NCBI GenBank assembly: GCA_028282585.1
Contig: JANQHR010000046.1
Span: 82,924 to 114,923, forward strand
DNA from: Bacteroidales bacterium
GTDB lineage: Bacteria > Bacteroidota > Bacteroidia > Bacteroidales > UBA12077
Reading direction: 5' to 3'
DNA: 32,000 nucleotides
Of this stretch, positions 1-32,000 are shown one piece after another (the stretch's first letter is position 1; the number at the start of each line of letters is the position of its first letter). Below the pieces are notes generated by a model. That model was not told the origin of the DNA, ran no database searches, and saw nothing but the letters and a program-made list of their open reading frames with translations. The position numbers and the translations under genes were made by a program.

Positions 1-3000
1 TTAGATTGTAATTTTCTTACCAGCTGACATTTCTTCCTCTACCAAACCTACATTCTTAATCATATCGATTAGTACCGCAATTTTTCGAATGGTAGTAGCA
101 ACGAATATATCAGAAATAAGTATTTTAATATCAAAGGTGTTATTTATTTGATTTATAAGAATATTTGCTTTTACGGAATGTCCGCCAAGTTCAAAGAAAT
201 CAGCATCAATACTAATCTTATTATCAGAAATACCTAATATATTGGACCATATTGTAACCAGTTGAGCTTCTAACTCTGTTGTAGGTGGTATATATTCAAT
301 TGTATCTTCAATATTTATCTCTGGCAATGCAGTTTTATCAACCTTTCCATTTTTGTTTAAAGAAATATTTTCAATTTCTTTGAAATACTGAGGAATCATG
401 TACTCAGGAATAACATCTTTTAATTCCTCCTTTATATCATTTGAATCTATTTCATAATCTGTAACATAGTAAGCACATAAATATTGCATGTTTAAATTAT
501 CCGTTTTTACAATTACAATAGCATCTGATATACGATCCAGTGATTTTAAAACAGACTCGATTTCTCCTAATTCAATACGATAACCTCTAATTTTAACCTG
601 AAAATCATTTCTACCGATAAATTCTAAACTGCCATTTGGTAACATTCGAGCTAAATCTCCTGTTTTATATAGTTTTTCATTATCAACAAAAGGATTTTTA
701 ATATAACATGTATTAGTTAATATCAGATTATTCAAATAACCTTCCGTTATACATTCTCCACCTATATATAATTCACCAACCATACCTTTTGGTAAAGGAT
801 TTAAATCCTCATTTAAAATGTAAACTTTAGTATTTGGAAATGGATTACCAATTGGAACATTGGTGTTCTTATCTGTTTCAGTATTATATTTATGGATAAT
901 ACACCCTACAGTAGCCTCAGTTGGGCCATACTCATTAAATATTTCTATCCTATTGGCAAATAAATCAATTATATTATGTGCCAATTGTGTTTCTAGTTGT
1001 TCTCCTCCTATTACTATTGTTTTTACTCTACTCTTATTGATTATATCACTCAAACCTTGATTGTCTCTAATAAGCTTTAAATGTGAAGGCGTTAATTTAA
1101 TTACATCCACTTTATTATCCGATAGTACTTTCTCAATATCCGCTTCTTCGTAAATTACTAATTTACTACCATTTATCAAAGGAGTAAAAATTGATGTGAT
1201 GGTTAAATCAAAAGTCAATGATGTATATAACGGGAAATTAGATTCCTTTTGTTTACAATAAAACTTATTAGCACTCCAAATGTAATTAACCAAGTTCTTA
1301 TGATTAACCAAAACTCCTTTGGGATTTCCTGTAGTTCCTGATGTATAAATGCAATAAGCGATATTATACGTAAATCCCTCGGGTAAGTTTTCTTTATAGC
1401 TTAAAAGCTTTTCGTTATTTAAATTTTCATAAAAATCATTTATCTCAAAAATCTTTATTTTACTATAACTATCCTTATTAAAAGCAATTCCAGGAATTTC
1501 AATTAACTGCTTTTCTGTAGGGAAACTTCCCTTATTTTCAAGGATTGTTGAAACTACCTGTGCAAAGGTCTTCTCACCTTCTCCAAAAACAACCAAATCA
1601 ACGTTTAAGTTTTTAAGTACTTCATCATAATTACTAGTTGGATAAGGACCTCCTGCGATTAATATCCCTTTATAATATTTCCTAATATTTTCAACTGTTT
1701 CGTTAAAATATAGTTTATAATAAACTAAGGACCTACAACCTACAATATCCGGTTTGAATTCTTCAATTATTTCTTGCAATTCAGAATGACTATCAAAATC
1801 AACCCGTGATTTTATAATTTTACAATTAACTTTATTATTAAATTCTTTATTAATGTATGTTGCCAGATACATTAAGCCCAATGGAGGCTCAATTACATCA
1901 TAAATATCCTGAGAATCTTTTGAAAAATATAATGATAAATCTATTAAAAGTATTTTAAGTCTATCATTGGATTTAACATCATGTGAAAAATGAGCTTTAA
2001 TTTTTGAGTTTAAGTCAATTGTTTTATTACTTTCAGAATTATTCTCATCTAATTCTATTTCATCTTTAAGTCCTATAAAATTCAATAATTCTTCAAATGT
2101 GCTAATATTAACAGGTAGATAACTGTTATATTTTTGAACTAATTCATCTTTCGTTAATACCTTTAATTGATATGGCAATACTTTTTTAAGTCTCTCTTTA
2201 GAAAGAAAGTATTCATTAAGAAATATTGATTGATACTTTTTTGTAAATGATTCATTAAACGGCAAAGTTAAAGGTAATGCATGATGAGGAAGATGTTCTG
2301 ACATTGAAATAGATTTCTCAGAAATACCATTTTCCAATGCCATTTTATGCATATCTGTATTTTTATAAATCTTTAAAATATTGATATAAGGAAAATGTAT
2401 CCATTTAATACTTTGAATAAAATTTAATGTCATTAGAGCTTCCTCTTCTGTTTCAGTTGGGAATCCATGCATTGTCATTAGTTCAATAATAACCTGAGGA
2501 TAGGTTTTACTAATATATTCAAGATTATCTTTTAATTTTTGTAAATCAATATTTTTATTTATAAGCTTTTGTAATCGTGGAGACGCGGTTTCAAGAGCTA
2601 AAGCAAAATTTACAACACCTGCTTTTACCATCAAATCAATGTACTCTTTAGTTAAGATATCTCCTCTTAATCCGTTAGGGAAAAAAAAGTTTACTTTTAA
2701 TCCATTTTCAATAATCAGTTCAAAAAATCGCTTACTGTTTTGAACATTTAAATTAAAAATATCATCAACAAATGAGAATCTTTTAATTCCCATTTTATAG
2801 TAAAGATTAACTTCTTCGAATATATTATCAGCAGATCTAAATACATGCTTTTTAGACCAAACTTTATGACAATATGCACATTTAAAAGGACAACCTCTGG
2901 TTGCTTGAATTGAAATGCTATTTTTCACCATAGCTTGTCCTATATATTGAGTATAATAGTTATAATCAACTAAAGAACGGTTAGGCATAGGTAAAGAATC

Positions 3001-4947
3001 AAATTCTTTAATTGGATCTCTATTTATTGTTTTTACAATATTATCGGTATCAAGAATATTCTGAATTTTTCTCTCTCGAATTATTTTCTTCGAAGCTATA
3101 ATCAATGATAATTGAGAATCAGTTACAATAGTACGAAGTCTTTTTTCAGGTATATCGGTATCCAAGGGTAAATAAACACAGTTTAGTTTAAGTATTCCCA
3201 GTATTGCAACTATTGTATCGATTGATCGTTCCATCATAACACCGACCATCTCACCTTCGTTGATATTTTTATATTTAAGAAATGCAGCAAATTTATCTGA
3301 CACTTCTCCAAGTTCTTTATATGTCAGAGTTTCTTTATGCATTTGCAATGCTATATCGGAAGGAGTTTCTTCTACCTGATTATTAAATAAATCAATAATG
3401 GTCTTATCGTAGGGAAAATACGATTTTGTTCGGTTAAGGTCAAAAACTATCCGTTCTTTTTCTTCAGAAGTAAGCAGATCAACCTGTCCTAAAGTCAACT
3501 CATCATCTCGAACAATCTGATTAGAAAGATTTTTAAAGAAACTCCCAAATCTATCAATAGTATCTGAATTAAATAAATCAGTTGAATATTCAAAGTTTAA
3601 TAAGATTTGGTTACCGTAATCATACACATTTAGTCTTAAATCAAACTTAGAGTGTCCCTTTATATGGTTGTTTATTGTATTATGATCAGATTTTTTAATT
3701 TCAGTTTCTTTGGTATTTTGTAAAGCAAATACAACATCAAATAAGGGATTTCTATTGGTATTTTTTGTTATGGTTAATTTATCTAACAACTCCTCCAGAG
3801 GATACTCTTGGTTTTCAAAGGCTTCCACTGTTAAAGTCTTGATTTCTTTAAGGTAATCTTTAATCTTCTTATTTCCATCCGGGAAACTTCTTAAAGCCAT
3901 TGTATTAACAAACATTCCAACAACTCCCGCAAAATCAACATGAGGTCTGGCTTCATTTGTAGTTCCAATAATAATATCATTTTGTCCGGATATCTTTGAC
4001 AATAGTATCTTAAATGTTGCTAACATTATCATGTATAATGTTAATCCATTTCTTGATATATATGCCTTTACATTTTGAGTTTCACCTATCGATAGTGCAT
4101 AGGAAACCGTAGCTCCTTCGAAATTTATATTCGCGCTGCGAGAATAATCAGTTGGCAGGTCTAATGAAGGTAATTCGCCAGCTAATTTTTGTAACCAATA
4201 TTTCTCACTTTGGAGCTTCTTATCATGTTGCTGTTTACTTTTTCGCCATTCAGAAAAGTCAGTATATTGCAAATTACGTGAAGCCAATTTTTTCCCTTCA
4301 TACAATTTTATAAAATCTTCAGTTAGTATTGAGTGTGATATACCATCGCAAATGATGTGGTGCATATCAATAAACAAAAGTGATCTGTTCGTATTTGTTT
4401 TTATCAAACTACTTCTAACTAATGGAGCTTTATCCATTTCAAAAGGTTTTAATAAAGTATGCTGAATATTATTAATTTCTTCTTCTTGAATATATAACTC
4501 GTTCAAAGTAAAATTGATATTTTCATTAATTATTTGAACTATGGAATCACCCACCATTCTGTAAGATGACCTTAAAATATCGTGATGATTAATCAGAATT
4601 GAAAATAATTCTTCGATTTTATCCTTGTCAAGGCCATCAGGTAATGGAATGAAAAAGGGCATATTATATGCAACATTATTAGATAACTGTTGCAATAAAT
4701 ACATTCTGGTTTGCGGAGAAGTTAATGAATAATATTCCTTTTTTTCACTTTTTTTTATATTAGCAAATGAATTTTGCCTATTATACTTAACTAGAAATTC
4801 AATTAATTCTTTCTTATTATCTCTAATTAATTCTATTAACTCCTTCGTTATTTTTTCCTTATCACCTTTCAGTTTTATTTGATTTTCACTTAATCCAATT
4901 TTAATTCCTTTCTGATTGAGGTGATCTACCAGTTCGAAGATATTCAT
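1..4947 (-). CDS. NRPS, one module: TubC_N-like docking domain - C - A (interrupted by radical-SAM + B12-binding-like didomain) - T
   Basis: 1648-aa ORF with ATG at 4945-4947 and TAA at 1-3. Motifs read in the translation: HHIICDG (C3), LTYKEL (A1), [11 protein letters not shown] (A2), CPFKCAYC (radical SAM), [11 protein letters not shown] (A3), NEYGPTE (A5), YKTGD (A7), [20 protein letters not shown] (A8), LPEYMIP-like IPEYMIP (A9), NGKVDK (A10), FFELGGHS (carrier). Confidence 0.92.
   Translation of the reverse strand: [1648 protein letters not shown]
73..291 (-). other. Peptidyl carrier (T) domain
   Basis: aa ~1553-1625. [15 protein letters not shown]...[15 protein letters not shown], with the phosphopantetheinyl Ser at aa 1591. 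Confidence 0.9.
313..1374 (-). other. Adenylation domain, C-terminal fragment (A3-A10); hand-extracted specificity code DLTKVGEVGK (Asn/Asp-like)
   Basis: aa ~1192-1545 with motifs A3-A10 as listed for the CDS. The code comes from aligning FDLTITS / IKLTPSH / IVIGGEQ / [11 protein letters not shown] / NGKVDK to the GrsA-PheA positions 235-517. It is intermediate between the recalled Asp (DLTKVGHIGK) and Asn (DATKVGEVGK) codes. Confidence 0.8.
1528..1962 (-). other. B12-binding-like (flavodoxin-fold) domain of class-B radical SAM type, located C-terminal to the radical SAM core
   Basis: aa ~996-1140. LKILLIDLS...[15 protein letters not shown]...[18 protein letters not shown]...[19 protein letters not shown]...[17 protein letters not shown]...IPGIAFNKD. 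This matches the consensus pattern I recall for the N-terminal cobalamin-binding domain of B12-dependent radical SAM enzymes. Confidence 0.7.
2068..3015 (-). other. Radical SAM core domain nested in the A domain
   Basis: aa ~645-960. [15 protein letters not shown] linker-like motif, [14 protein letters not shown] (CX3CX2C; Cys codons at nt 2869-2892, verified on DNA), [38 protein letters not shown]. Confidence 0.85.
2437..2472. repeat. 36-nt dispersed repeat, copy A (35/36 identical to 31532-31567)
   Basis: agcttcctcttctgtttcAgttgggaatccatgcat here versus agcttcctcttctgtttcGgttgggaatccatgcat in the other copy. It encodes [12 protein letters not shown] in both nested radical SAM domains. Confidence 0.9.
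3082..3420 (-). other. Adenylation domain, N-terminal fragment (core motifs A1-A2)
   Basis: aa ~510-622. [17 protein letters not shown] (A1) and [22 protein letters not shown] (A2). The A-domain sequence then stops and resumes about 570 aa later at A3. Confidence 0.85.
3448..4746 (-). other. Condensation (C) domain
   Basis: aa ~68-500. [12 protein letters not shown] (C1-like), HHDILRSSY (C2-like), HHIICDG at nt 4342-4362 (verified on DNA), [51 protein letters not shown]. Confidence 0.9.
4783..4947 (-). other. N-terminal docking domain, TubC_N-like
   Basis: aa 1-55, [52 protein letters not shown]. The pattern is a short helix, then G-I-x-I/L 'x-G-x-L-x-L-x-x' hairpin, then a K/E-rich helix ending EL-I-x-F-L, as in TubC-type N-terminal docking domains. 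It sits directly before the C domain. Confidence 0.6.
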
Positions 4948-5103: not shown

Positions 5104-8100
5104 TTAAATAATAATTTCAACTTCCTCATTAACTTCATCGTCTTCTTCAATATTTTGGAGTAATTGAATCAGTTTTGAAATTGTTTTTATGTTAGGGTTT
5201 TCAAAGAAATCTCCAAGTCGGATTTCTATATTGAATTCTTTATATATCATTGAAGTAATTTGAATTGCATTTAAGCTATGTCCTCCAATTTCAAAAAAGT
5301 CGTCGTATATGCCTATTTTATCAAGTGCAAGAACTTCTTCCCAAATTTTAGTTAATTTTTTTTCTACATTGGTTTGTGGTTCGACATAGCTATTACTTTC
5401 AAGCTTAAAGTCTTTTAAATTTGCCAACTGCCTCCTGTCAGCCTTTCCATTTGTATTTAATGGTATTTTATCCAGTTGAATAAAAAAAGTTGGAACCATG
5501 TAAGCTGGTAATTTTTTTGAGATTTCCGATATAATAACACTGGTGTCTATTTTATTTTTATTCGATACAGTATAAGCCACCAGTTTTTTATTTCCCGAGT
5601 TATCATCTATTGCTATTACAACACTTTCTTTAATATCATCCAATTGATTAAGTACCGATTCTATTTCTCCCAGTTCAACTCTAAATCCTCGTATTTTTAT
5701 TTGATCATCTATTCTACCCAAAAATTCTATATCGCCACTTGGAAGCCATCTTGCTATGTCGCCAGTTTTATAAATTCTAACTGCATCCTTAGGGTTATCT
5801 TTTTCAGAATAAATTTTACCACGTTCTTTATTCCATATTATAAATTTATCTTTTGTCAGAGAATTATTCTGATAATACCCTCGTGCTAAACCGACACCAC
5901 CTATATGTAATTCTCCGGGGATACCAACAGGTTGTAATTTGTGGTTATTATTTAAAATAAAAAGATTAATATTATCAATAGGTTTACCGATTGGAATTGT
6001 ATCTACTTTTTCATCCCTGGTGCAATTATAATATGAAACGTCAACTGTCGCCTCGGTAGGACCATAAAGGTTTACTAAATTAACTTTTAAGTTTTTAAAT
6101 AATTCATTAAAAAATAAAACACTATTTGCCGATAAGGCTTCACCACTAGCAAATACCTGTATTAAACTTTTTAGATTGTCTACGTCTACATTATGATCCT
6201 TAATATACTGTAAAAAAACATTTAACATAGAAGGCACAAAATGTATTTTTGTTACTTCTTTTTTAGTTATTGTCTCAATTATTCTATTTGGATCTTTTTC
6301 TTCATTTTTGTCTAATAAAACCAATGATGCCCCATAAAAACTCCACCAAAATAGTTCCCATACTGAAACATCAAAACCTATTGAAGTCTTTTGAATCAAA
6401 ATATCCGTTGGAGAAGCATTATATTTTTTTTGCATCCAGTTAATTCTGTTTATTACAGAATGATGTTCTATCATAACTCCTTTAGGTTTTCCTGTAGAAC
6501 CCGATGTATAAATAACATATGCTATATTGTTGGAGTTAGCCTGATTAAATTCTTTTAATCCAGGTTTTTCATAAGAAAAACTATCTATGAATATCAAATC
6601 TGTACCCGTTTCTTCGAACTTATCCTTTAAATGAATTTTTGTTATAACAAGGTTACATCCACTATCTGATAGCATTATTGATATTCTTTCATCAGGATAA
6701 TCTGGAATAATAGGTAAATAAGCAGCTCCTGACTTTAAGATTCCATAAATACAGATCATCATTTCTATTGATCTATCCATACTAACTCCTACTAGCTTTT
6801 CAGGCCCAATTCCACAATGTCGAAGATATTCTGCTAATTCATTTGCTTTAGCATTTAATTCTTTATATGTTATTCTTTCATCTTTATAGATTAAAGCAAT
6901 CTTATTAGGAGTTTTTAAAACCTGCTCTTCAAATAAATAATGGATACATTTCTCTTTAGGATAATTAACTTTTGTATTGTTGAAATTACCTAAAATCTGA
7001 CCCTTTTCTTCTTTTGTCAATATATCCAGTTCATTTATAATAATATCTTTATTCTCAACTACACTTGTAACTATCTTGTTAAAATGCTTTAATATTCTTT
7101 TAACCGTATCTCTATAAAATAAATCGGTATCGTAAATTATAGAAAGTTTTATTTCATTATTATTATGATGAAATATGAAATCCAAATCAAATGTACTTTT
7201 TATATTATTGCTGCTGTTTTTAAAAGGTTTCAAACTTAAATGATTGCTATTACTTGTTTCATTTTCATAAACAAAATCTCGATCACTATTATATAATACA
7301 ATTACATCAAAAAATGCAGATCCTACCGAATTTCTTTCTGTAGATAATTCCTCAACTAATTTACTAAATGGATATTCCTGGTGATTATATGCTTCTTGAG
7401 TATTATCTCTAACACTATTTAAAAATTGCTCAAAAGTTTTATTTCGATCAACTTTATTTCTTAAAGTCAACATATTTACATAATATCCAATTTGATCTCT
7501 TAAATTATAATTTTGTCTACCTGATACAGGAGTTCCAATTATTATATCATTTTGGTCTGTATATTTATAAAGTAATATTTTCACTAATGAAAGTAGTGTC
7601 ATAAATGGAGTAGAATAATTGCTTTTACTGATATCAAGTAAACTATCCACCTGGTATTTGGATAGAGTCAGGCTTACAAGATCTGCTCCATGTGATTTGC
7701 TTTTTGTCCTACTTTTATCGGTTGGAATATTTAAAGATGGCAGTTTACCTCCAAGTATTTTATGCCAATATTCTTTGTGTTTTCTATAAATATCCGAGTT
7801 TACTATATTATTTTGCCAGGCACTGTAATCTTTATACTGAATTGTTAATGGTTCAACTAGTACTTTTTCATTATTTATTCGAGAATTGTATAGATTTAAT
7901 GCATCTTTACCAAATACATACATTGACCATCCATCGCTTATAATGTGATGCATTGCGTAAACAAAGACATATTTCTTTTCTTCAATCTTAATCAGATAGC
8001 TTCTTAACAAAGGTCCTTTGTATAAATCAAATCTTTTTGTTTTAGCTTCTTTTATTAATTCATTTACTTTCTTTTCTGTAGAAGCTTCTTTACTAAAGTC

Positions 8101-11100
8101 ATATTCCTCTATCTCAAAATCAATAGAAGTTAATACCTTTTGTTTAAATTGTCCATCCTTTTTTGCGAATACCGTTCTAAATGATTCATGTCTGTTAATT
8201 AACATATTAAATACATTTCCAAAAACACCAGCGTCAACTTCTCCTTCCAAGATAAAAGAGTTAGATATTATGTACCCATAATTATTCTTAGATAATTCAT
8301 CAATTAAAAGTAGTTGCTTTTGCGAATATGATACTTCGTAATACTCCTGATGCTGTACTTTCGGAATAACATTTCTATTGTAATTTAACTGATTTGTTGA
8401 ATCAGTTGAATTATCTATTAATTCATTTAGTTTATCGATATCAATTCTATTAAAATCGATGCAATCAATAAGTTTTATTTTATATTCATTACCAGTATAA
8501 GAAGGATCATTATAAAGCATTTTTTGAAGATTCCTAATAAATGGTTCTACTGACAATAAAGAAACAAACTCTTCAGCTTTAATTTTTGCAATACTTGACT
8601 GCTTTTCATAAACTTCTTTGCTATAATATAAATCTTTTAATGCCTTTATCCAAGGTTCTATTTCTTGTTCAGGAACTATTGCTTGTGGTAAAGAATTTTC
8701 GTTAAACTCATTCTTATATTCTTTAATATGATTAATAGGTATCAGGTAATCCGTTTCTAATTTTGCTTCTATTAATCCTCCATGCTGACTAGCTAAAACA
8801 GGAATTCCCCTTAACATAGCATCAGTACAGGCCATACCAAATCCTTCAGCCCATAATGTTGGCATTAATAATATCTTTACATTAGCCAAGAGTTCATTTA
8901 AACTCTCTTTATTTTCCATTATTGTAATGTTAGGCACCTCATTCATCAACCTCATATCTGTTGGCGTAGTACCCCAACCCGGAACAATTGCGAATTTAAT
9001 TTCAGGTAATAATTTTGCTAAAGTCAATAGTATTTTAATTCCTTTTACATCACACGGATTAAACATAAAAACATATTCATTATCAAAGGAAGCTAACTTT
9101 GGAAAAATGTCATTTCCAAAATGAGGCGGATGGTTTACAAAAGTACTGAATCCAGTATGTGTTTTAACATAATTAGAAACATACTCACTAATTGTTACAA
9201 TCTGAGTTGATTTACCTATTAATTCGGTTCGCTTTTTTCCAGGGTAAAGACTTTCAGGCCCGAATGGAAGTAATTGGGGAGTATGAGCTAAATATATTAT
9301 ATTATCGGATCTAACCTCATGAATAGCTTTTAACAGTTGTTGAGATGGATCTTCTGCAGAAATAAATATCCAATCGGGTTGAAATTCTTTAATTATCTTT
9401 TGAAGTTCTACTTTTAAATCATCAGTTTCTAAAATTGCATGTACTTCAACATTCTTTATATTAAAAACATACTTTTTATCATAAACATCAACGGTTATTC
9501 CATCATCTTTTAAGCTTTCCAATAATTCCTGGCTCGTAATATCACTAGGAACAGCTAGTGCAGGTGTAACAACTTTTACATTATGACCAAGTTGTGCAAT
9601 TTCTTCTACCAAATATTTATTTGATTTATTAGCGCCTCCAAATACTCTTGTATAAGGTAGATTCATAGTTAAAATCAAATCAAGTTTAATATTAGGTGCT
9701 ACATCTATCTTCTGTAGAATTTCCTTAATATTTGCAATATCAGATTGCTCTATTTTTCTTCTTAATATCAGTTTCCCAAAATCTTGAATTGTTGTTTTTG
9801 AAAATAGAACTACAAAATCAATATCTGTTGAGAATTCATGATTTATCCTTGATAATAATTTTATTGCTAGTAAACTGTTTCCACCTAAATCAAAAAAGTT
9901 TGAGTTAATACTAATTTCATCAACTTCAATATTTAAAACTTCGGCCCAAATAGATGCTAATTGTTTTTCAGTCTTATTACGAGGAGCAATATAGTTATTG
10001 TTAATACCTGCACGTGGTTCCGGTAATTTTTCTTTATCAACTTTTCCGTTAATTGTCAAAGGTAAATTATCAATAATGACAAAAAATGATGGGATCATGT
10101 ATTCTGGAAGCTTTCTTTTTAAAAACTCCCTAAGAATATCATTCAGCTCTGATATTTTATTATCATGGAGTATAATATATGCGCACAGATATTTTTCACC
10201 AGAGTCACTTAATTTATCCACAACAATTGTATCTTTAATCAAATCATGTTTTAGAAGATTCTTTTCAATCTCACCTAATTCAATACGATACCCTCTTATT
10301 TTTATCTGGTTATCAATCCTTTCAACGAATTCTAAGTTTCCATCTGATTTAAAAAAGGCCTTATCTCCGGTTTTATATAAAATATGGTTATTGGAAGTAT
10401 TAATAAATTTTTCAGATGTAAGTTCAACTCTGTTCAAGTATCCTTCGGCAAGGCAGTTTCCTCCAATATAAATTTCACCTGGGATTTCTTTAGGAATAAC
10501 ATTAAATTTATTATCGAATAAATAAATATTAGAATTTGATATTGGTTTTCCAATAGGAACATTTTCGGCATAGTCATCTTCAATTTTGTATTCATAAATC
10601 ATACATCCAACCGTTGCTTCAGTTGGACCATATTCGTTATATATTTGTACAGATCTCTGAAATGCCTTTGATACAATTCTGCAGTCTTTACTTTTAAGCT
10701 GATCTCCACCAATAATCAGTTTCCTAACATTTGAGTTTTTAAGATTATATTCATCTAATATTTTTAAGTGAGCTGGTGTTAACTTTACGATATTTATATC
10801 CTTATTATCAAATATTCTGCTAAAAGTTTCAGGAATATCTGTCGAATCATAAATAATAATTTTACCACCGGTTAAAAGTGGAACATAAATAGAGGTTTTG
10901 GTTAAGTCAAAGGATATGGATGAATATAATGGAAAATTAAAATTACCATCTATGTTATATATGTCCGAAGCCCAATTTATATAATTAGCAATACTTTCAT
11001 GATTAACAATTACTCCTTTTGGATTTCCAGTTGAACCGGAAGTATAAATTATGTATGCGCTTTTATAATTCTTGTTTGATATATCAAAACTCTGACCATT

Positions 11101-12300
11101 TGAAAATATATTATCATTTTTTATACTAACTATATTATAATCATGATTCCATTCCTCTACATATTTAAGATCTGTTATTAAATTGTTAACATTTCCATCC
11201 TTCATCATAAATTCGATACGTAACTTAGATAAGTTGGTATCAATAGGCATATAGCAAGCACCTGTTTTTAAAACTCCCAGAATGCTTATAATAAGCTCAA
11301 TTGAATTATCTAGCATAATTCCTACTATCGAATTTTCTCCAACACCTTGCATTATTAAATAATTTGCTATAGCATTTGATTTAATATTTAATTCCTTATA
11401 AGATAGCTGTTCTTCATTATATTCAACAGCAGCATTATCTGGAGTTTCCAAACATTGTCTGACAAATAATTCACAAATAGAATTATTTAAGTAATCCTTC
11501 TTAGCAGTATCATTAAATTTATTTACTAACTCTTCTTTTTCTTCCGATGATATTAGTGAGAAAGAATTTATTGGATTTTCTAAGTTACTTATAACAGATT
11601 TGAAAAATCCTTTATAATATTTTACTAAATTTTTTATTAACTCTTCAGAGTAAAGACATGAGTTGTATTTTACTTTTCCTTTAAATATTTTACTTTCTTT
11701 TTCAAATGAAAATGAAAAGAGTATGTTGTAATTAATTTCGTTAAGATATCCTTCTTTTTGAATATTTTCATATAATATACCAATATCAAATAAAGGAAAG
11801 CTTTCATTCTTTTTTAAGTTTAATCCCATCTTTTGAACAAGTGCATCAACTGGGTAATTTTGATTTCTAATAACATTAACTAAATTGTCCTTTGTACTTA
11901 GAATAATATCCTTAAAACTTTTCTCCCCATTCACTTGATTTCTAACACATAAAACAGTGTTAAGAAATTCATCCTCAACCTTTTGTTCATGAATTGATGT
12001 ACCTATACTGATATCCTCAGATTGTACATATTTAGATAAAAACGCACTTATTCCGGCAATTAATAATACCTGAATTTTAAAATCCTGTTCTTTACTGATG
12101 TCAAGTATTTTCAATGTAAGGTCTTCATCAAATTTGAACTTATACTCCTGCTTTTCGATCTCTTTATTTATCAAAGAATCTTTACTATATGGAATTATTG
12201 TTTTCTCTTCAAAACCTTTTAAATAATCCAACCAGTACTTTTCTTCGTTATATCCTATATTGTTCAGATATAATATTTTATCAGTTTTACTATTACCCAT
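5104..12300 (-). CDS. NRPS, two modules with an embedded glycosyltransferase: truncated C - A - T - GT - C - A - T
   Basis: 2398-aa ORF with ATG at 12298-12300 (verified) and stop at 5104-5106. It contains two full A-domain motif sets, two carrier motifs ([16 protein letters not shown]), one HHIISDG, and a GT-B-like block with [22 protein letters not shown]. Confidence 0.92.
   Translation of the reverse strand: [2398 protein letters not shown]
5176..5388 (-). other. Peptidyl carrier (T) domain followed by an acidic C-terminal tail
   Basis: aa ~2305-2375. [13 protein letters not shown]...[14 protein letters not shown], with Ser at aa 2342. The tail, aa 2376-2398, reads ...[19 protein letters not shown]. 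Confidence 0.9.
5431..6969 (-). other. Adenylation domain; hand-extracted code DVWHFSLVDK (Ser)
   Basis: aa ~1778-2290. [101 protein letters not shown]. The code is identical to the Ser code I recall for EntF. Confidence 0.85.
7021..8367 (-). other. Condensation (C) domain
   Basis: aa ~1312-1760. [35 protein letters not shown] (nt 7930-7950, verified), [41 protein letters not shown]. Confidence 0.9.
8521..9693 (-). other. GT-B fold glycosyltransferase domain (GT4/Glycos_transf_1-like) embedded between T and C
   Basis: aa ~870-1260. N-lobe: [39 protein letters not shown]. C-lobe: [24 protein letters not shown]...[39 protein letters not shown]. The EX7E-type motif is present as E1152-x7-D1160 (nt 8821-8847, verified on DNA). 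Confidence 0.75.
9766..9987 (-). other. Peptidyl carrier (T) domain
   Basis: aa ~772-845. [14 protein letters not shown]...[14 protein letters not shown], with Ser at aa 809. Confidence 0.9.
10006..11499 (-). other. Adenylation domain; hand-extracted code DLTKIGEVGK (Asn/Asp-like)
   Basis: aa ~268-765. [85 protein letters not shown]. Confidence 0.88.
11551..12300 (-). other. Truncated condensation domain (C-terminal lobe only, no HHxxxDG)
   Basis: aa 1-250. [10 protein letters not shown] (YWxxxLxG-type motif), [56 protein letters not shown], then the C-A linker [15 protein letters not shown]. The protein starts about 20 aa before the YW motif, so the whole N-lobe including the catalytic His motif is absent. 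Confidence 0.75.
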
Positions 12301-12392: not shown

Positions 12393-13721
12393 TTAAAAAT
12401 TAAATGAAGAATCATTTATATCGGAAATATTTGTAATTACCTCTTTTTTAGTATTATTCTTGATAACCTCCATACCATCTTTATCAAAAGTATTGACACA
12501 AAAAGAAAAATCTTTAAATCTGGTAATCCTGAATGTATTATCATCATGCCTTTCTTCCTCTACTTCATCAGAATAACTTCTTGCTCCAAGAACCTCATTT
12601 AGTACATTCCATCTACGCGCAATTTCTCCATCCTCCACTTTATTACTGAATCCTGTTGAAGTAGCACCATTTACATCGCTGTACCCAAAGTGTTTAACTT
12701 TATTAAAACACTTATCTTTTTTAAAAAATTCGGTTAACTCATTAAAAATTTCAATAGTTTCTCCTGGGAAGCCTACCATAATATCTGCAACCATATGCAT
12801 TTTAGGATTATCAAATTTTATTTCCTGAATTGTATCGTATAACTTGGTTAAGTTAATAGGTCTTCCCATGCGGTCCAGGATGTGCTCATTAACGTGTTGC
12901 AGCCCTATATGCAATTCATTTATCCATCCTTTTTTACATAAATCCTTTATTTCAGTTGAGTACTTCTCTAACCATCTAATATGTAAATAACTAAAATAAA
13001 GATTTGCCAATGGAACAGCATTTTTTATTTCATGAACTAGTTCTATTATTGTTTTGTTGCTATCGATTCCATAGGCAAAAGCATCTTCTCCCATTAAATA
13101 TATTTTATCGTAACCTTTTTCAACTCCGGTTTTTACTTCTTTAATTATATCTTCAACAGGTCTACTGTTTATATATCCTTTTGCTTTATTTATAATGCAG
13201 AATGTACACTCTCTTAGACATCCTTCAGAGATTTTTATATAATATACAGGAATTTTTTCTGGAGGTGTTAGGTTATACTTGTTAAAAACATTGACATATT
13301 TAACATCCTTAAATTCTACTTTCGCTCCAATTATCCTGTCAAGAATTTCCTCTTCATGTATGCCAATAATTTCTCCCCCAAATTGTTCTTTTAGTTTTTC
13401 TGACTGTGTCTTTGGCAAACATGCCATAACAATTATATTCTTTTCAGGAAAATTAACTTCTCTTGCAGCTTCTAGTATTTTAATAAACTTCTCATACATC
13501 AAATCATGGAATCCACAACCGCAAATAATAATTTTATCTACATTTAAATCATCACATACCTTCCACCCGTTAGTTCTAAAATATTTTTCAACCGTAGCAT
13601 AATAAGAAGTGTGTCTTTCGCAATGGACATTATTAGTAACTATAGCTACTCTTTTATCTAATAATAAATTATTCATAATAAGAGTTATTAAATTATTTAA
13701 GGGATTACTGTAAATGTTCAC
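12393..13721 (-). CDS. Radical SAM methylthiotransferase-family protein (RimO/MiaB-like)
   Basis: 442-aa ORF. The GTG at 13719-13721 overlaps the upstream TAG by 1 nt. An alternative ATG at 13674-13676 (MNNLLLDKR...) is at least as plausible. Radical SAM motif: YIKISEGCLRECTFCII (compare E. coli RimO YLKISEGCNHRCTFCII, from memory). The N-terminal UPF0004-like domain has three spaced Cys (NNVHCERH, IICGCGFHD, IVMACLPK; spacing ~35 and ~33 aa). Also MVGFPGETIEIF and ARRWNVLNEV. Confidence 0.75.
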   Translation of the reverse strand: MNIYSNPLNNLITLIMNNLLLDKRVAIVTNNVHCERHTSYYATVEKYFRTNGWKVCDDLNVDKIIICGCGFHDLMYEKFIKILEAAREVNFPEKNIIVMACLPKTQSEKLKEQFGGEIIGIHEEEILDRIIGAKVEFKDVKYVNVFNKYNLTPPEKIPVYYIKISEGCLRECTFCIINKAKGYINSRPVEDIIKEVKTGVEKGYDKIYLMGEDAFAYGIDSNKTIIELVHEIKNAVPLANLYFSYLHIRWLEKYSTEIKDLCKKGWINELHIGLQHVNEHILDRMGRPINLTKLYDTIQEIKFDNPKMHMVADIMVGFPGETIEIFNELTEFFKKDKCFNKVKHFGYSDVNGATSTGFSNKVEDGEIARRWNVLNEVLGARSYSDEVEEERHDDNTFRITRFKDFSFCVNTFDKDGMEVIKNNTKKEVITNISDINDSSFNF

Positions 13722-23888: not shown

Positions 23889-25034
23889 TTATTTAGTATT
23901 GTAATAATACTTTCTGAGTGCGTAACTGGATATTATGTTTTTTTGTATTTGTGATGTTCCTTCAATTATCTCCAATACCTTAGCTTCTCTAAATAACCTT
24001 TCAACAGGGTATTCTGAATAACATCCATTTCCTCCATGAACTTGTACAGCATCAATAGCAACATTCATTGCAATTTTTGAGGAAAAATATTTTGCAATTG
24101 TAGTTTTTATTACAGCTTCATGACCTTTATTCATTCTATTATTTGCAGCTTCAATACATAAGGCTCTTGCTGCATGGATATTTGTAGTAGCATCAGCAAT
24201 CATTCCCTGAATATGTTGAAAGGTATGTATACCTTTCCCAAATTGATTTCTATTTCTTGAATATTTCACCATTGCATCTAACGCTTCCTGTGCAATAGCA
24301 ACACCCGCCCAAGCAATACTATATCTTCCATTATCAAGCGCAGTATTAACAACAAATGAAAAGCCGCATCCTTCTTTGCTTAACAAATTCTCACGAGGTA
24401 TTTCTACATTTTTAAATTCAATTTCTGATATATGTGAAGCTTTATTAGCTAATAAACCTTTTATTGGCTTAACTTCTATCCCCTCATAATTGCGTTCAAC
24501 AATAAAAGTAGATATTCCTTTTTCTCCTCTTGCTACAACTATGAAGAAATCAGCAATTTCAGCAAAACTTATCCATTTTTTCTTTCCATTTAGAATATAT
24601 CCGGAATTAGAATCTGAATATGAACACTGAATATTTTTTGCATCCGTACCTACATTTGGTTCAGTTAAAGCAAAAGCCCCAATCTTCTCTCCTGTTGACA
24701 TCATTGGTAACCATCTCATCTTTTGTTCAATACTCCCCCATTTTAGCAAAGTTTCAGCAACTAAAGAGGTATTAACAGTTATTAATCCACGCGTATTACA
24801 ACATGCTTTACCAATTTCTTCCGTAAACAATCCATAATGAAGTGAATCTAGCTCAAGGCCACCAAAATCTCTTGGTATACTTGCAGTTAAGTATCCATTT
24901 TTAGCTAAATTAGTAATTAAATCATTTGGCAGTTTTTCCTCGTTTTCAAAAATAGTAGCAAAAGGCCTTATCTTTTTTTGAGCAAATTCTTTTACTTCTT
25001 CAATAACAGTATTTTGATCTATCAAATTATTCAT
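23889..25034 (-). CDS. Acyl-CoA/acyl-ACP dehydrogenase family flavoprotein (FkbI-like)
   Basis: The ORF track gives 389 aa from a TTG at 25056-25058. I prefer the ATG at 25032-25034 (MNNLIDQ...), preceded by AAAGAGG. ACAD-like motifs: GAFALTEPNVGTDA, WISFA, VQVHGGNGC, EAKVLEIIEGTSQIQKNII. Confidence 0.85.
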   Translation of the reverse strand: MNNLIDQNTVIEEVKEFAQKKIRPFATIFENEEKLPNDLITNLAKNGYLTASIPRDFGGLELDSLHYGLFTEEIGKACCNTRGLITVNTSLVAETLLKWGSIEQKMRWLPMMSTGEKIGAFALTEPNVGTDAKNIQCSYSDSNSGYILNGKKKWISFAEIADFFIVVARGEKGISTFIVERNYEGIEVKPIKGLLANKASHISEIEFKNVEIPRENLLSKEGCGFSFVVNTALDNGRYSIAWAGVAIAQEALDAMVKYSRNRNQFGKGIHTFQHIQGMIADATTNIHAARALCIEAANNRMNKGHEAVIKTTIAKYFSSKIAMNVAIDAVQVHGGNGCYSEYPVERLFREAKVLEIIEGTSQIQKNIISSYALRKYYYNTK

Positions 25035-25045
25035 TGCCTCTTTAG

Positions 25046-25747: not shown

Positions 25748-25788
25748 TTTAAAAACGATATTATTTAATCCGATAAAAGCAATTATGT

Positions 25789-26034: not shown

Positions 26035-26046
26035 AATTTTAAAAAT

Positions 26047-27081: not shown

Positions 27082-27099
27082 CTTATTAATAGATAAACA

Positions 27100-27954: not shown

Positions 27955-28030
27955 TTTTCTATTTTTAATAAACAATCTATATATGTTAGAATGGATGTAT
28001 CCAGTATGTTGCAACTATAGTTGACTGAAT

Positions 28031-31000
28031 TTAATTATTCAAAAAGCTATTTTTCATAAAATCTTTTCCTTCTTCTAAAGTTTCGAAATTATTCACAGTA
28101 GTATTTTCTTCACTCTGTTCAGATTCCAAATGATCTGTTAATCCTTTTATAGTGGTATACGTAAATAAGGTTGTAATAGGAATTTCTTTGTCGAGTAACT
28201 CGTTTAGTTTAGTATTCACTAAAATTAAACTTAAAGAGCTTCCTCCGAGATCAAAGAAATTATCATTTACACCTATTCTATTTAGTTTTAAAACTTCTTT
28301 CCAAATTGCTTCAACCGACTTCTCCATTTTGCTTTCAGGTGCAACATATGTTGTCCCTGTCATGGCCCTATCTTTTTGCGGTGCAGGAAGTGATTTAAAG
28401 TCAATTTTACCACTAATTGTCAACGGAATAGAAGGAATCTCTGTGAAATATGAAGGTACCATATATTCAGGTAATGATTCTAATAGAAATTCTCTTAAGG
28501 TATTTGAATTAACATTTTCTGAAAAACCATTCACCGGAATGAAATAAGCTGCAATATATTTCTCATCATCTCTAATATTTACTTTTTCGCTCACCCCCAG
28601 CCTTCTTAAAAAGTTACCATATGCCTTTTCGGAGACCTTACAATTTAAATCTTCTTCAACGTTCTCAAGGGATAAGTGATCTAGTCTTTTTTCCCAACTT
28701 GTTGCTGAACCATAATAATGAAATCCATGATCTTTCATAAAACCATAATCTCCAATTTCTTTTATAGCACAGTTTGTTGAATAAACTGCAAAGTCTTTTT
28801 TCTTTTTCCAGTATGAGTCTTGTTTATTTAAATAGGTTATTAAATCCTCATTTTTAATATCACAAAACCTATAAAAATCCAGAAACCTCACTTTATCATG
28901 TATTCTACCGTCCGTTACTACATCTATATCAACTAAGTCAAATATTTTACTATCAATCTTTGGAGTATTCTTTTGCATATTTAATATTTCCTTTTCAATT
29001 AACTGATTATCCATATTTTCAGATTTCATGAAAATATTAAGTTTGTTTTCAATTATTTGACCCCTTGAAAGTGTAGCTCCAATAACAACTTTAATATCGT
29101 GTTTGTAAGCATACTCAGCAGCAAGCGAACTTGATACATGAAAACATCCCCTACATACAGTCGAAAAGGATTTCATACTTTCTTTAAGTATAATATCAGA
29201 TATATCGTGCTTTAAAATGATATTTTCAACACCCAACGATGATGTTACATATTTTATATTCTTAATATCTGATTTAGAAAAGTAACCATTGTCATATGTT
29301 AAAGTTAATACCTTCAAACCCATTTTAACCAGTTGATATAAAGCATAACCTGCTCCCCGTCCTCCTGCATAAAGTAAAATACAATCATATTTACTTTCTT
29401 TATCTTTATTTTGCTCTTTTACAAAAGTTTGAAGATCATCTAAAGATTTAAAATATTCATTAATGACTTTACTATTTTTTTCCAAGGAATTACACTGGTT
29501 ACAGATATTACTGTCATCTATCTTAATCTCTGGATAAGTAGAATTAATTCCGCATTTTTTACAATATTTTAATTCCGGTTTATCATCCTTTGGCGACCTA
29601 ACCATTAAAACACAGTCCTTAATATTCTGATGTTTTTGTAAAGCATTCTTTATTTCTCCAAGTTCAATTCTATATCCTCTAACCTTAACCTGTTCGTCTT
29701 TTCTTCCTTTAATTTCAATATTCCCATCTATTAACCTTCTACCAATATCTCCGGTTTTATAAAGTTTCCCTTCTCCAAATGGATTATCAATAAATACTTC
29801 ATTTGTTTTTTTCCAATTATTAATATATCCTCTTGCAATACTATCTCCTGCTATACAAATCTCACCATAATAACCAAGTGGTTTTTGTTGTAAATCGTCC
29901 GAAAGAATATATACTTGATTATTTGCAACATTATTGCCAATAGGAATTATTTCTCGAGTATCATCTTTCTTTAAAGGATAAAATGTATTATTAATAGTAC
30001 CTTCTGTTGGACCATAAGTATTAACAACCCTACCTTCCAAATAATTATGGAAATTTCTAACAACATTGGCAGCAACAGGTTCAGCTCCTATAAACAGGAG
30101 TGGTATTTTAATTTTAATATCATTTTCATAGGAATCTAAAATATGGGTAATAGCAGTAAACATAGATGCTGTGCAGTACATCTTTGTAATTTCAGTAGCT
30201 TTTGACAGAAGTTTTATTAAATGGTTAGCATCTTTACTTATTATGTCATTAATGACTTTTACTTTAGCACCTTTGTACAATGGCCAAAATACTTCGAAAA
30301 CTGACGGATCGAATGTAAGATTTGTACGTTGTGCCATTACATCAGTTTCTAACATCCCAAATTCCTTATCCATCCAGAATACACAATTATTTACTTGTTT
30401 GTGTTCCACCATTACACCTTTTGGCACTCCTGTTGATCCTGATGTGTACATAACAAAAGCCAAATCACTACCATTGGTGGGTATATCCAAATTCGAAGAT
30501 GGTTTATCTTTTAATTGATCAACCATTTGATCAATAATTATAATATTCCTGGTATCCAGCACATTTTTTTGTAATATTTTTTTATATACAATTCCATTTA
30601 TAGACTCTAGTTGCCTAGTATCAGGAATATTAAAGTCATTCTTAAAAAATTCCTTAAGTAATTCTTCAAAAGTATATTCTCCTTCACCAAGTACAGCTAA
30701 ATCAACATTTTCATCTTTTAGAATAGTATCGTAATCACTTGATGCATACGGCCCACCTACAATTAATGGAACCTTTATTCCCCAATTTCTAATAATAGAA
30801 ACTGTTTGGTGAAAAAAGTCTCTGTAAAAAGTCAAAGTTCTTATTCCAATTAGATCTGGATTAAACTCTTTTACCAAGGTTTGCAACTCCTGGTAATTAT
30901 CAAAATCAACACCTGCCTTATATATAAGCCCATCGATCTTATCCTTGAATTTCTTTTTAAGATATGTCAATAAGTATACTAAACCAATAGGTTGTTCAAC

Positions 31001-32000
31001 AACCTTATATAGCATACTGTGACTACTGAAGTGCTGAGATAAATCTAATAGCAGTATTCTTTTTTGATTTTGTTTTTTTTCGCTTGCTGTATTACCTGAA
31101 CTGTTAAAAACTATTGGCGCATCAATTTTTATTTTTTGATCGAATTTTAGCTGTGTATTATTTAATCCGGCAAGCTCCATAATATCTTCAACATTATTAA
31201 TTTCAACAGGCAAATAAGCATTATATTTTTGTATAAGGGCCGTTTCATTTAAGACCTTCATCTGTGCCGGAAGTACCTGTTTAAGCCGATCTTTATTAAG
31301 AAAATACTCATTCATAAAATCAGCCTGATACTTTCTTGTAAAAGATTTCGGAAATGGTAAAGTTTCCGGTAGTTCATGAAATGCCCTATCTTTTGAATTC
31401 ATTATATCACTTTTTCGCACTCCATTTTTCAAAGCAAATTCTTCCATTTCTGTATTTGGAAAGATTTTTAGAATATGTATATATGGAAAATGTAACCATT
31501 TAATATCCTTTATAAATTTTAGGGTCATCATAGCTTCCTCTTCTGTTTCGGTTGGGAATCCATGCATGGTTGCCATTTCCAGTATTACATGTGGATGAGT
31601 ATTTGCTATATAGTTTACAACATCACGAAATTTATCAAGGTTTAGGTTCTTTTTTAGTAATTTTTGTAACCTTGGGGAGGCTGTTTCCAATGATAAATTA
31701 ATTCCTCTGGTACCTGCTTCTACCATCAAATCAATATAATCCGGAGTCATGATATCTCCTCTTAAACCATTTGGAAAGAATAACTGAATATCAAGCTTAT
31801 TTTTTACAATATTTTGAAGAAGCGCGCCACTTTCTCGTAAATTCAAATTAAAACAATCATCAATAACAGCAAAGTTCCGAACACCTTTTTTATAAAAAGA
31901 TTTTATTTCCTCGAAAATATTATCACCACTTCTATGGACATGGTGTTTAGACCAAATTTTATGACAATAAAGACATTTATACGGGCACCCCCGTGTTGTT
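28031..32000 (-). CDS. NRPS, 5'-truncated by the window edge: ...A(A1-A2 outside window) - radical SAM - B12-binding-like - A(A3-A8) - Zn-ribbon/PP-loop-like domain - A(A9-A10) - T
   Basis: The ORF track starts at a TTG (31846), but the frame stays open to nt 32000. My hand translation of 31847-31999 gives TTRGCPYKCLYCHKIWSKHHVHRSGDNIFEEIKSFYKKGVRNFAVIDDCFN, colinear with aa 683-733 of the 1-4947 protein. The stop is at 28031-28033. Confidence 0.9.
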   Translation of the reverse strand, partial: TTRGCPYKCLYCHKIWSKHHVHRSGDNIFEEIKSFYKKGVRNFAVIDDCFNLNLRESGALLQNIVKNKLDIQLFFPNGLRGDIMTPDYIDLMVEAGTRGINLSLETASPRLQKLLKKNLNLDKFRDVVNYIANTHPHVILEMATMHGFPTETEEEAMMTLKFIKDIKWLHFPYIHILKIFPNTEMEEFALKNGVRKSDIMNSKDRAFHELPETLPFPKSFTRKYQADFMNEYFLNKDRLKQVLPAQMKVLNETALIQKYNAYLPVEINNVEDIMELAGLNNTQLKFDQKIKIDAPIVFNSSGNTASEKKQNQKRILLLDLSQHFSSHSMLYKVVEQPIGLVYLLTYLKKKFKDKIDGLIYKAGVDFDNYQELQTLVKEFNPDLIGIRTLTFYRDFFHQTVSIIRNWGIKVPLIVGGPYASSDYDTILKDENVDLAVLGEGEYTFEELLKEFFKNDFNIPDTRQLESINGIVYKKILQKNVLDTRNIIIIDQMVDQLKDKPSSNLDIPTNGSDLAFVMYTSGSTGVPKGVMVEHKQVNNCVFWMDKEFGMLETDVMAQRTNLTFDPSVFEVFWPLYKGAKVKVINDIISKDANHLIKLLSKATEITKMYCTASMFTAITHILDSYENDIKIKIPLLFIGAEPVAANVVRNFHNYLEGRVVNTYGPTEGTINNTFYPLKKDDTREIIPIGNNVANNQVYILSDDLQQKPLGYYGEICIAGDSIARGYINNWKKTNEVFIDNPFGEGKLYKTGDIGRRLIDGNIEIKGRKDEQVKVRGYRIELGEIKNALQKHQNIKDCVLMVRSPKDDKPELKYCKKCGINSTYPEIKIDDSNICNQCNSLEKNSKVINEYFKSLDDLQTFVKEQNKDKESKYDCILLYAGGRGAGYALYQLVKMGLKVLTLTYDNGYFSKSDIKNIKYVTSSLGVENIILKHDISDIILKESMKSFSTVCRGCFHVSSSLAAEYAYKHDIKVVIGATLSRGQIIENKLNIFMKSENMDNQLIEKEILNMQKNTPKIDSKIFDLVDIDVVTDGRIHDKVRFLDFYRFCDIKNEDLITYLNKQDSYWKKKKDFAVYSTNCAIKEIGDYGFMKDHGFHYYGSATSWEKRLDHLSLENVEEDLNCKVSEKAYGNFLRRLGVSEKVNIRDDEKYIAAYFIPVNGFSENVNSNTLREFLLESLPEYMVPSYFTEIPSIPLTISGKIDFKSLPAPQKDRAMTGTTYVAPESKMEKSVEAIWKEVLKLNRIGVNDNFFDLGGSSLSLILVNTKLNELLDKEIPITTLFTYTTIKGLTDHLESEQSEENTTVNNFETLEEGKDFMKNSFLNN
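28127..28354 (-). other. Peptidyl carrier (T) domain
   Basis: Track aa ~1165-1240. MEKSVEAIWKEVLK...FFDLGGSSLSLILV, with Ser at aa 1204. Confidence 0.88.
28367..28570 (-). other. Adenylation domain segment A9-A10
   Basis: Track aa ~1093-1160. EKYIAAYFIP, LPEYMVP (A9), PLTISGKIDFKSLP (A10, Lys517 equivalent present). Confidence 0.85.
28571..29584 (-). other. Zinc-ribbon + PP-loop-like adenine-nucleotide-alpha-hydrolase-type domain (WbpG/N-acetyl-sugar-amidotransferase-like) inserted between A8 and A9
   Basis: Track aa ~755-1092. YCKKC...(16 aa)...ICNQC (nt 29492-29563), then KYDCILLYAGGRGAGYALYQLVKMGLKVLTLTYDNGYFS. AGGRGAG (nt 29348-29368, verified) occupies the SGGxDS PP-loop position. Further downstream are STVCRGCFHV and LGVENII. 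The layout matches the CxxC..CxxC + YDCI-x-x-SGGKDS + 'vDnGw' pattern I recall for this family. Confidence 0.55.
29603..30484 (-). other. Adenylation domain segment A3-A8; hand-extracted code DPFYFGTINK (no match to any code I can recall)
   Basis: Track aa ~455-748. YTSGSTGVPKG (A3), TFDPSVFE (A4), NTYGPTEGTIN (A5), GEICIAGDSIARGY (A6), YKTGD (A7), GRKDEQVKVRGYRIELGEIK (A8). Confidence 0.85.
30647..31063 (-). other. B12-binding-like domain (paralogue of 1528-1962)
   Basis: Track aa ~262-400. KRILLLDLS...EQPIGLVYLLTYLKK...ELQTLVKEFNPDLIGIRT...VPLIVGGPYASSDYDTIL...VDLAVLGEGEYTFEELL...INGIVYKK. Confidence 0.7.
31172..32000 (-). other. Radical SAM core domain (paralogue of 2068-3015), partial at the window edge
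   Basis: CPYKCLYC, with Cys codons at 31985-31987, 31973-31975 and 31964-31966 (verified). AVIDDCFNL, LETASPRLQKLLKKNL, MHGFPTETEEEA. By eye, roughly 60% identical to the other copy across the aligned block I compared. Confidence 0.85.
31532..31567. repeat. 36-nt dispersed repeat, copy B (35/36 identical to 2437-2472)
   Basis: See copy A. The coordinates were counted directly on the sequence lines. Confidence 0.9.

Follow-up and report, generated by a model that had tools for sequence, protein, structure and literature searches.

Reviews of 2025 and 2026 divide the radical S-adenosylmethionine (SAM) enzymes that depend on cobalamin into class I, with an N-terminal five-stranded Rossmann domain, and class II, with a C-terminal four-stranded DUF512 domain, and they name Mmp10 as the sole characterised enzyme in which the cobalamin domain is C-terminal (PMC13331322, PMC12931638). 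The Rossmann fold of class I enzymes is closed by a beta-hairpin (PMC13331322). Tailoring domains are also known from the interrupted adenylation (A) domains of nonribosomal peptide synthetases (NRPSs), where a 2020 catalogue of bacterial examples contains class I methyltransferase inserts only and the words "radical", "B12" and "cobalamin" are absent (PMC8341866). A domains interrupted by a methyltransferase (M) act on a carrier-tethered substrate (PMC11355689); a 2024 A-domain review cites TioN and MarQ for the A2-M-A3 arrangement and leaves A domains interrupted by radical SAM units unmentioned. Here we analyze a 32,000-nucleotide stretch of Bacteroidales DNA (contig JANQHR010000046.1, positions 82,924 to 114,923; hereafter the window), in which A domains carry a nested unit with a radical SAM domain followed by a B12-binding domain, the reverse of the class I (class B) order. 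The literature that we searched held no report of radical SAM units in A domains or of permuted class-B enzymes, and absence there is not proof.

A nested radical SAM and B12-binding unit

The minus strand carries all genes of the window, and all window coordinates given below refer to it. The product of 4947..1 is a 1648-amino-acid (aa) module with TubC-type docking, condensation, interrupted adenylation and thiolation domains. Its A2 motif LKLNCVYLPLD (aa 586-596, 3160-3192) and A3 motif YTSGTTGNPKG (aa 1201-1211, 1315-1347) are separated by 604 aa, compared with 64 aa in an uninterrupted A domain elsewhere in the window. Between two AMP-binding halves, Pfam places both a Radical_SAM domain (PF04055, aa 681-844, E 5.2e-23) and a B12-binding domain (PF02310, aa 1020-1131, E 4e-12, 46.5 bits versus a cut-off of 32.1). 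The N-terminal part of the A domain (aa ~505-633, 3049..3435) matches AMP-binding in two stretches and includes the A1 motif LTYKEL (3310-3327), and the remainder runs from A3 through A10 into the thiolation domain (313..1467; Pfam AMP-binding 1194-1405, AMP-binding_C and PP-binding). Motifs A1-A10 are all kept, with A4-A10 readable in the translation, as in other A domains interrupted between a2 and a3. The insert does not qualify as a class I SAM methyltransferase, since Pfam gave no Methyltransf match on this protein.

The unit covers about 1468-3048 of the window (~527 aa) and runs through a linker motif, a radical SAM core, a helical region, a low-complexity connector and the PF02310 Rossmann domain. 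Its N-terminal edge, NIVKTINRD (aa 636-644, 3016..3042), is predicted to be the second strand of a split Rossmann-closing beta-hairpin, and is followed by the class-B inter-domain linker motif FDSLPMPNRSLVDY (aa 649-662, 2962..3003), which aligns with residues 173-185 of AprD4 (AEPLPARDLVDH) and with the canonical consensus lP.PAYDL. The core (aa 681-844, 2416..2907) carries the CX3CX2C motif as CPFKCAYC (2869-2892), and the three cysteines (C686, C690 and C693) are invariant among 65-69 aligned family members. Downstream, the post-core region (aa 845-961, 2065..2415) is homologous to the canonical class-B C-terminal region; its second half is mostly helical, and the AlphaFold2 helices have a predicted local distance difference test (pLDDT) score mostly >85. 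The connector DEIELDENNSESNK...SNDR (aa 962-996, 1960..2064) forms the new junction from the former C-terminus to the former N-terminus. None of its columns reaches 50% consensus in the family alignment, and it is the lowest-confidence internal block of the model (pLDDT 69-78). The cobalamin-binding-type Rossmann domain (aa 997-1159, 1471..1959) has five strands and contains the class-B blocks EPPLG (1855-1890), GGPY (1633-1659) and GEGE (1567-1587), of which PPLG, GGP and GEGE vary little or not at all across the family alignments. Its C-terminal end is the first strand of the hairpin, IEIPGIAFNKD (aa 1149-1159, 1471-1503). The unit lacks a DxHxxG motif, as class-B enzymes usually do.

A second copy of the unit (30578..31999), 51% identical to the first, lies in a second NRPS gene of the window, 31999..28031, and is cut by the window end just ahead of CX3CX2C. 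The radical SAM core, connector and Rossmann domain are present, with Pfam matches to Radical_SAM at 1-163 (E 4e-18), B12-binding at 335-448 (E 1.8e-12, 47.6 bits) and AMP-binding at 487-725; the Rossmann domain ends in INGIVYKK, and A3 is next, at 30416-30448. A preliminary description of the window had read the order as radical SAM then B12 in both copies, quoting the linker, connector and IPGIAFNKD motifs, all of which are present; the Pfam positions confirm this order in each copy.

That description had also proposed that the unit is a circular permutation of class-B enzymes, and three kinds of comparison agree. We doubled a canonical 441-aa B12-radical SAM sequence, whose gene adjoins a free-standing family member in [Clostridium] polysaccharolyticum, and compared the insert with it by blastp. 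Insert residues 38-206 corresponded to the canonical radical SAM core, and a single alignment placed residues 270-496 on doubled positions 363-580, crossing the C-to-N junction into the B12 domain (E 2.6e-7). When a 65-sequence family profile was aligned by hhalign with a 54-sequence canonical profile in native order, we obtained two separate matches (E 4.5e-42 and 6.2e-37), the second of which sets the C-terminal domain on the canonical N-terminal domain at 99.9% probability. Moving the Rossmann block to the front in silico gave one collinear 356-column match (E 4.8e-50, score 384). Finally, the family hidden Markov model (HMM) gave two or more matches in 90 of the 120 canonical proteins searched, and in all 90 the order was swapped and the junction contiguous; in one example, residues ~20-152 fell on HMM positions ~377-532 and residues ~151-390 on positions 3-245.

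Database profiles gave the same correspondence. The first ~250 insert residues match positions ~160-400 of many B12-radical SAM families in NCBIfam, and residues 383-500 match positions 17-138 of the KedN5 profile, the N-terminal B12 domain of that family, with none of the NCBIfam models reaching its cut-off for the unit (best 92 bits versus 600). In the PDB search, insert residues 12-240 aligned with AprD4 residues 173-400, placing SLPMPNRSLVDY on AEPLPARDLVDH, and the Rossmann part matched the cobalamin domain of TokK (65-138), as well as 4q37 and the cobalamin domain of MetH. Given that the unit becomes collinear with class B only after duplication or re-permutation, and with a contiguous junction, we conclude from these alignments that it represents a true circular permutation of the class-B (class I) radical SAM enzymes of cobalamin type. 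It has the CX3CX2C core of class I and the PF02310 five-stranded Rossmann domain with its closing beta-hairpin; a cobalamin domain N-terminal to radical SAM, as in class I, is found in neither copy nor in any of the 271 family units described below. Judged by its profile matches, the C-terminal segment is a true Rossmann domain of the B12-binding type, as had been supposed. The alternative that the segment at aa 996-1140 is a generic Rossmann linker is excluded by the PF02310, PDB profile and hhalign matches.

The re-permuted alignment also locates the break. The family C-terminus, ...LK.I.GIAF, falls on canonical I.G..YR, and the family N-terminus, I..T..R.QI.DLD.LP.PDRSLVDY, on canonical G.I..N...LP.PAYDL, with hhalign setting the edge "i..T..R" on "ng.i..n". 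The canonical consensus I.G..YR..G.I..N is thus divided between a C-terminal ...IPGIAFN and an N-terminal NIVKT.... Since this consensus corresponds to the Rossmann-closing hairpin, the alignment places the break at the turn between the two strands of the beta-hairpin with which the Rossmann domain ends, directly upstream of the linker. It had earlier been placed exactly at the linker, which it does adjoin, although it lies in the preceding hairpin turn. The range first assigned to the unit, 1528-3030 (aa 640-1140), covers most of it, although it begins just past the N-terminal strand NIVKT (aa 636-640) and stops 12-19 residues short of IPGIAFNKD.

From a break in the hairpin turn it follows that the ends of the unit should be adjacent antiparallel strands. 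AlphaFold2 models of two constructs reached pLDDT 90.9 and 91.1, each with a predicted TM-score of 0.90, and DSSP assigned five strands to the Rossmann domain and terminal strands to IVK (aa 637-639, E12-14, block pLDDT 92) and IAFN (aa 1154-1157, E529-532). A break in the hairpin would make these two terminal strands pair with each other.

Nested and free-standing members of the family

Among 5.8 billion proteins searched, more than 100 matched at 46-58% identity (at least 120 listed). In nearly all of the matches listed, a single collinear alignment spans 97-100% of the query, and most of them are 535-600 aa long with radical SAM and B12 domains only. Among 50%-identity representatives, HMMER found 992 clusters at E<1e-30. 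The proteins representing 146 of the best 150 clusters exceed 1000 aa (up to 7548 aa) and match the query in one collinear stretch; they are evidently multimodular synthetases, and NRPS domains were confirmed in those examined individually. When one genome per species was scanned, at least 390 loci were found across many phyla, in Aminicenantes, Acidobacteriota, Clostridia, Halanaerobiales, Bacteroidales, Omnitrophota, Desulfobacterota, Pelagibacteraceae and others. The permutation is thus real and widespread, in a family that is apparently undescribed. Two cultured carriers are Desulfosediminicola flagellatus IMCC35005, with a nested unit (NZ_CP050698.1, 3.414-3.428 Mb), and [Clostridium] polysaccharolyticum, with a free-standing one (P0093).

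The retrieved proteins contained 271 full-length collinear units (143 nested, 96 free-standing and 32 partial). Nested units are regularly placed, with A3 19-51 aa downstream in 115 of the 143 and A2 38-48 aa upstream in 80. One free-standing member closes an NRPS/PKS (polyketide synthase) operon in a cultured Clostridium, others lie between NRPS genes, and a member from Pelagibacteraceae has its radical SAM domain at 52-215 and its B12 domain at 425-506. The expectation that free-standing homologues would seldom share the order of the nested copy was not borne out: the 96 free-standing units, 15 of the best 80 genome loci and a clade of 22 sequences all have it. This refutes the idea that the order is peculiar to nested copies and leaves the permutation relative to class B intact. 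Because free-standing homologues commonly read radical SAM then B12, the permutation is a trait of the whole family, whose members occur as free-standing enzymes, as separate subunits between NRPS genes, and as units spliced into the A2-A3 loop.

We also considered whether the short, ~550-aa homologues could be fragments of NRPS gene calls. This was excluded by the starts and stops shared in many independent sequences, and is further countered by the operon-end copy in the cultured Clostridium and by loci that lack NRPS condensation domains, none of which were found in 12 scanned loci of the all-free-standing clade.

Canonical-order units can be embedded in NRPSs as well. In four synthetases (P0129, P0154, P0193 and P0263), a TIGR04190-like B12-radical SAM unit (E 7e-31) lies before A1 of an A domain that also bears a permuted unit at a2-a3; in P0129 it occupies aa ~295-950. 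An NRPS chain can therefore hold such a unit without permutation. Every one of the 143 nested units at the A2-A3 site is permuted, in proteins that were retrieved by homology to the permuted unit, so that canonical-order A2-A3 inserts remain compatible with this count. P0129 contains, in addition, a nested ThiF domain at aa 1991-2217.

Several other features of individual members stood out. A conserved acidic tail, F(N)DDLE(D/N)E, ends 41 of the 96 free-standing units (P0004, P0005, P0008 and others), and at one locus (L003, 9960-10000) the NRPS subunit immediately upstream of the free unit ends in the same tail, ...DQFNVDLEDE. The sequence of this tail suggests a docking element that may recruit separate radical SAM-B12 subunits to the assembly line. 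In [Clostridium] polysaccharolyticum (L001, 10001-12981), the free permuted unit adjoins the canonical 441-aa protein used above, and in four further cases (P0083/P0273, P0090/P0274, P0091/P0277 and P0034/P0292) homologues of the two lie on contigs with equal reported lengths, which suggests a conserved pair. In Pelagibacteraceae AG-461-A07 (L067, 3706-7644), a free permuted unit directly follows a phosphonopyruvate-decarboxylase-like thiamine pyrophosphate enzyme and an Fe-alcohol dehydrogenase; with carbamoyltransferase, polysaccharide deacetylase and formyltransferase neighbours, the locus looks like a phosphonate-type cluster without an NRPS.

Function, origin and competing explanations

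We consider it very probable that these proteins form a family of permuted class-I-type cobalamin radical SAM enzymes, free-standing or spliced between A2 and A3, that would carry out C-methylation in line. In this proposal, the canonical order (Rossmann cobalamin domain, hairpin, linker, radical SAM core, C-terminal region) would have been circularly permuted, with a variable connector joining the old C- and N-termini and new termini opened in the turn of the Rossmann-closing hairpin. In the nested form, both window copies included, the unit sits as a clean splice in the A2-A3 loop of an A domain that is intact in all other respects. It would bind a [4Fe-4S] cluster, SAM and cobalamin, and would work on the aminoacyl or peptidyl thioester of a neighbouring carrier domain. 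By analogy with M-interrupted A domains and with class-B methylases, it is most likely a cobalamin-dependent radical C-methyltransferase. Consistent with this, the radical SAM part matches class-B methylase families (PhpK, KedN5, MCR glutamine methylase and others) at ~1e-16 to 1e-26, and free-standing members were found in NRPS/PKS clusters.

The host A domains offer some indication of the target. We read Stachelhaus-type specificity codes by anchoring motifs to what we take to be the GrsA-PheA numbering, and these codes are indicative only. The hosts of the 143 nested units (P0121-P0268) gave Thr-like (22), Ile-like (12), Leu-like (10), Glu/Gln-like (~19) and Asp/Asn-like (10) codes, along with Val-, Pro- and Ser-like ones. 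Copy 1 of the window has the Asn-like code DLTKVGEVGK, and copy 2, read by hand, has the unassigned code DPFYFGTINK. Given this diversity of host specificities, the target probably lies where all residues are alike, at C-beta or C-alpha, and so is independent of the side chain.

Several results weigh against this explanation. The top solved relative of the radical SAM part is AprD4, which resembles class B but works without cobalamin and is no methylase (PMC12931638). In the unit, GGPYAT/PS stands where canonical enzymes have the GG.HPT block, and the His is thus replaced. Foldseek, whose alignment depends on sequence order and is silent on inter-domain geometry, aligned the radical SAM part alone to PDB structures (TMq 0.35-0.45). 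Methylation is inferred by analogy, no member of the family having been characterised. In addition, the family tree, built roughly by neighbour joining and rooted on canonical sequences that had been re-permuted, has internal branches that are very short and root states that are ambiguous, and this poor resolution permits no inference as to whether permutation preceded nesting or the free forms are escapees.

The first of these points are shared by a rival explanation, in which the unit is cobalamin-independent or non-methylating (an AprD4-like dehydratase, an epimerase or a cyclase) and its Rossmann domain is structural only. AprD4 is the top PDB match in both sequence and fold, and ArsL is another class-B-like enzyme that binds no cobalamin (PMC12931638); the loss of the GG.HPT His would fit, and the diverse A-domain codes are also compatible with chemistry at C-alpha, such as epimerisation. 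However, the near-invariance of PPLG, GGP and GEGE points to a site conserved for a ligand, the domain passes the PF02310 threshold, and the characterised class-B members are mostly methylases. We therefore regard this rival as somewhat unlikely, although it deserves to be taken seriously.

A second rival concerns origin: permutation may have arisen as an adaptation to insertion in the A-domain loop, as the preliminary description implied, with free-standing members being later excisions from NRPSs. Every nested A2-A3 unit retrieved with this query is permuted, nested and free states are mixed in the NRPS-associated clade of the tree (at least 17 changes), and many free forms lie between NRPS genes and share the acidic C-terminal tail of NRPS subunits. 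A basal sequence, P0105, also appears to keep an A2-like remnant. Yet the exclusively free-standing clade of 22 is the sister of the NRPS-associated clade, in a tree whose rooting is uncertain and in which a long branch separates family and outgroup. Furthermore, none of the 12 scanned loci of that clade had an NRPS condensation domain, one member sits in the phosphonate-like cluster, and canonical-order units embed in NRPS chains too. On balance, we think this origin unlikely. That a radical SAM core lost its N-terminal B12 domain and later gained an unrelated C-terminal Rossmann/B12 domain is highly improbable: fusion and loss are common, the barrel-then-Rossmann order already exists in enzymes of the methylmalonyl-CoA mutase type, and 1req and MetH are among the weak Foldseek matches, but homology is unbroken at both junctions, the family termini map to adjacent canonical residues in 90 of 90 proteins, the hairpin halves and LP.P linker are kept at the new termini, and the region before the connector runs into the canonical N-terminus within one alignment, which argues against independent domain shuffling.

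If the family is indeed one of permuted cobalamin radical SAM enzymes, it would add a third architecture to the two described, with a class-I Rossmann domain made C-terminal through circular permutation, in about a thousand 50%-identity clusters. A bolder version, which we put forward tentatively and at somewhat less than even likelihood, is that permuted class I enzymes with split-hairpin termini form a third architectural class, a cassette spliced into a2-a3 that performs side-chain-independent methylation at C-beta or C-alpha in hundreds of assembly lines. Its hosts would be uncharacterised assembly lines of anaerobes such as Aminicenantes, Bacteroidales and Clostridia. The split-hairpin geometry, if true, would allow a whole two-cofactor enzyme to be inserted as a cassette in the a2-a3 loop, and permutation would then be a natural design principle for putting multi-domain enzymes into loops. 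The catalogue of interrupted A domains (class I methyltransferases, KR, Ox and similar inserts) would be extended to a radical two-metallocofactor enzyme, and a radical insert implies in-line NRPS chemistry on unactivated carbons. The cultured carriers make these ideas experimentally testable.

The surrounding cluster and comparison with known systems

The window is a hybrid NRPS/PKS cluster with a GC content of ~29%, and its closest genome match (98% identity) is the Bacteroidales metagenome-assembled genome PL23b_bin.85 (JANQHE010000031.1). The A domain of 31999..28031 is doubly interrupted, and both inserts are unusual. Besides the radical SAM-B12 unit at a2-a3, it holds a second insert between A8 (aa 765-783) and A9 (aa 1176), at 28550-29570 (aa ~810-1150), which is a WbuX-like N-acetyl-sugar-amidotransferase/PP-loop domain (TIGR03573, E 1.1e-27) that starts with CxxC...CxxC and has a degenerate PP-loop (LLYAGGRGAGY). 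A GT4-family glycosyltransferase (Glyco_transf_4 and Glycos_transf_1; 8707-9642, aa 887-1198) is present in line within a 2398-aa NRPS (12300..5104), between a thiolation domain and the next condensation domain. A stand-alone 442-aa MiaB/RimO-like radical SAM protein (UPF0004 and Radical_SAM) is encoded at 12393-13721, between both megasynthase genes. Four small genes at 23889-28014, for an acyl-CoA dehydrogenase, a SAM methyltransferase, an FkbH-like HAD protein and a 3-hydroxyacyl-CoA dehydrogenase, together recall a cassette for the extender unit methoxymalonyl-acyl carrier protein, a likeness that comes from these four genes.

Among known systems, the unit is closest to class I (TokK, CysS, TsrM, OxsB, QCMT/MgmA, Fom3 and GenK), with which it shares the PF02310 five-stranded Rossmann domain and hairpin, the PF04055 CX3CX2C core, the LP.P linker motif and the C-terminal region; CysS likewise acts in an NRPS pathway. 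It differs in having the Rossmann domain last, the hairpin split between its termini, and GGPYAT/PS in place of GG.HPT. Class II resembles the unit in having its cobalamin domain C-terminal to radical SAM, although the domain of Mmp10 is of the four-stranded DUF512 type and has no permutation relation (PMC13331322, PMC12931638). Pfam found no DUF512 match in the unit, whose domain is PF02310 with five predicted strands, and Foldseek aligned the unit poorly with Mmp10 (TMq 0.34, root-mean-square deviation ~15 Å).

The best solved relative of the linker and radical SAM parts is the radical SAM diol dehydratase AprD4 (PDB 6fd2; profile E 1.2e-21, Foldseek E 3e-11), which, unlike the unit, keeps its Rossmann-like domain N-terminal in the canonical order, is cobalamin-free and stands alone. 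Methylmalonyl-CoA mutase and MetH have the same linear order as the unit, with the B12 Rossmann domain C-terminal to a barrel, but they contain no radical SAM domain, match weakly (TMq ~0.22), and did not acquire their order by permutation of class B. For the insertion itself, the nearest parallel is the A2-M-A3 interrupted A domain (families 3 and 4 of Lundy et al. 2020), which likewise has a tailoring insert in the a2-a3 loop of an intact A domain. That insert presumably acts on a carrier-tethered substrate, as we propose for the unit; the catalogued examples are class I SAM methyltransferases of ~270-390 aa, whereas the unit is a two-domain metalloenzyme of ~527 aa.

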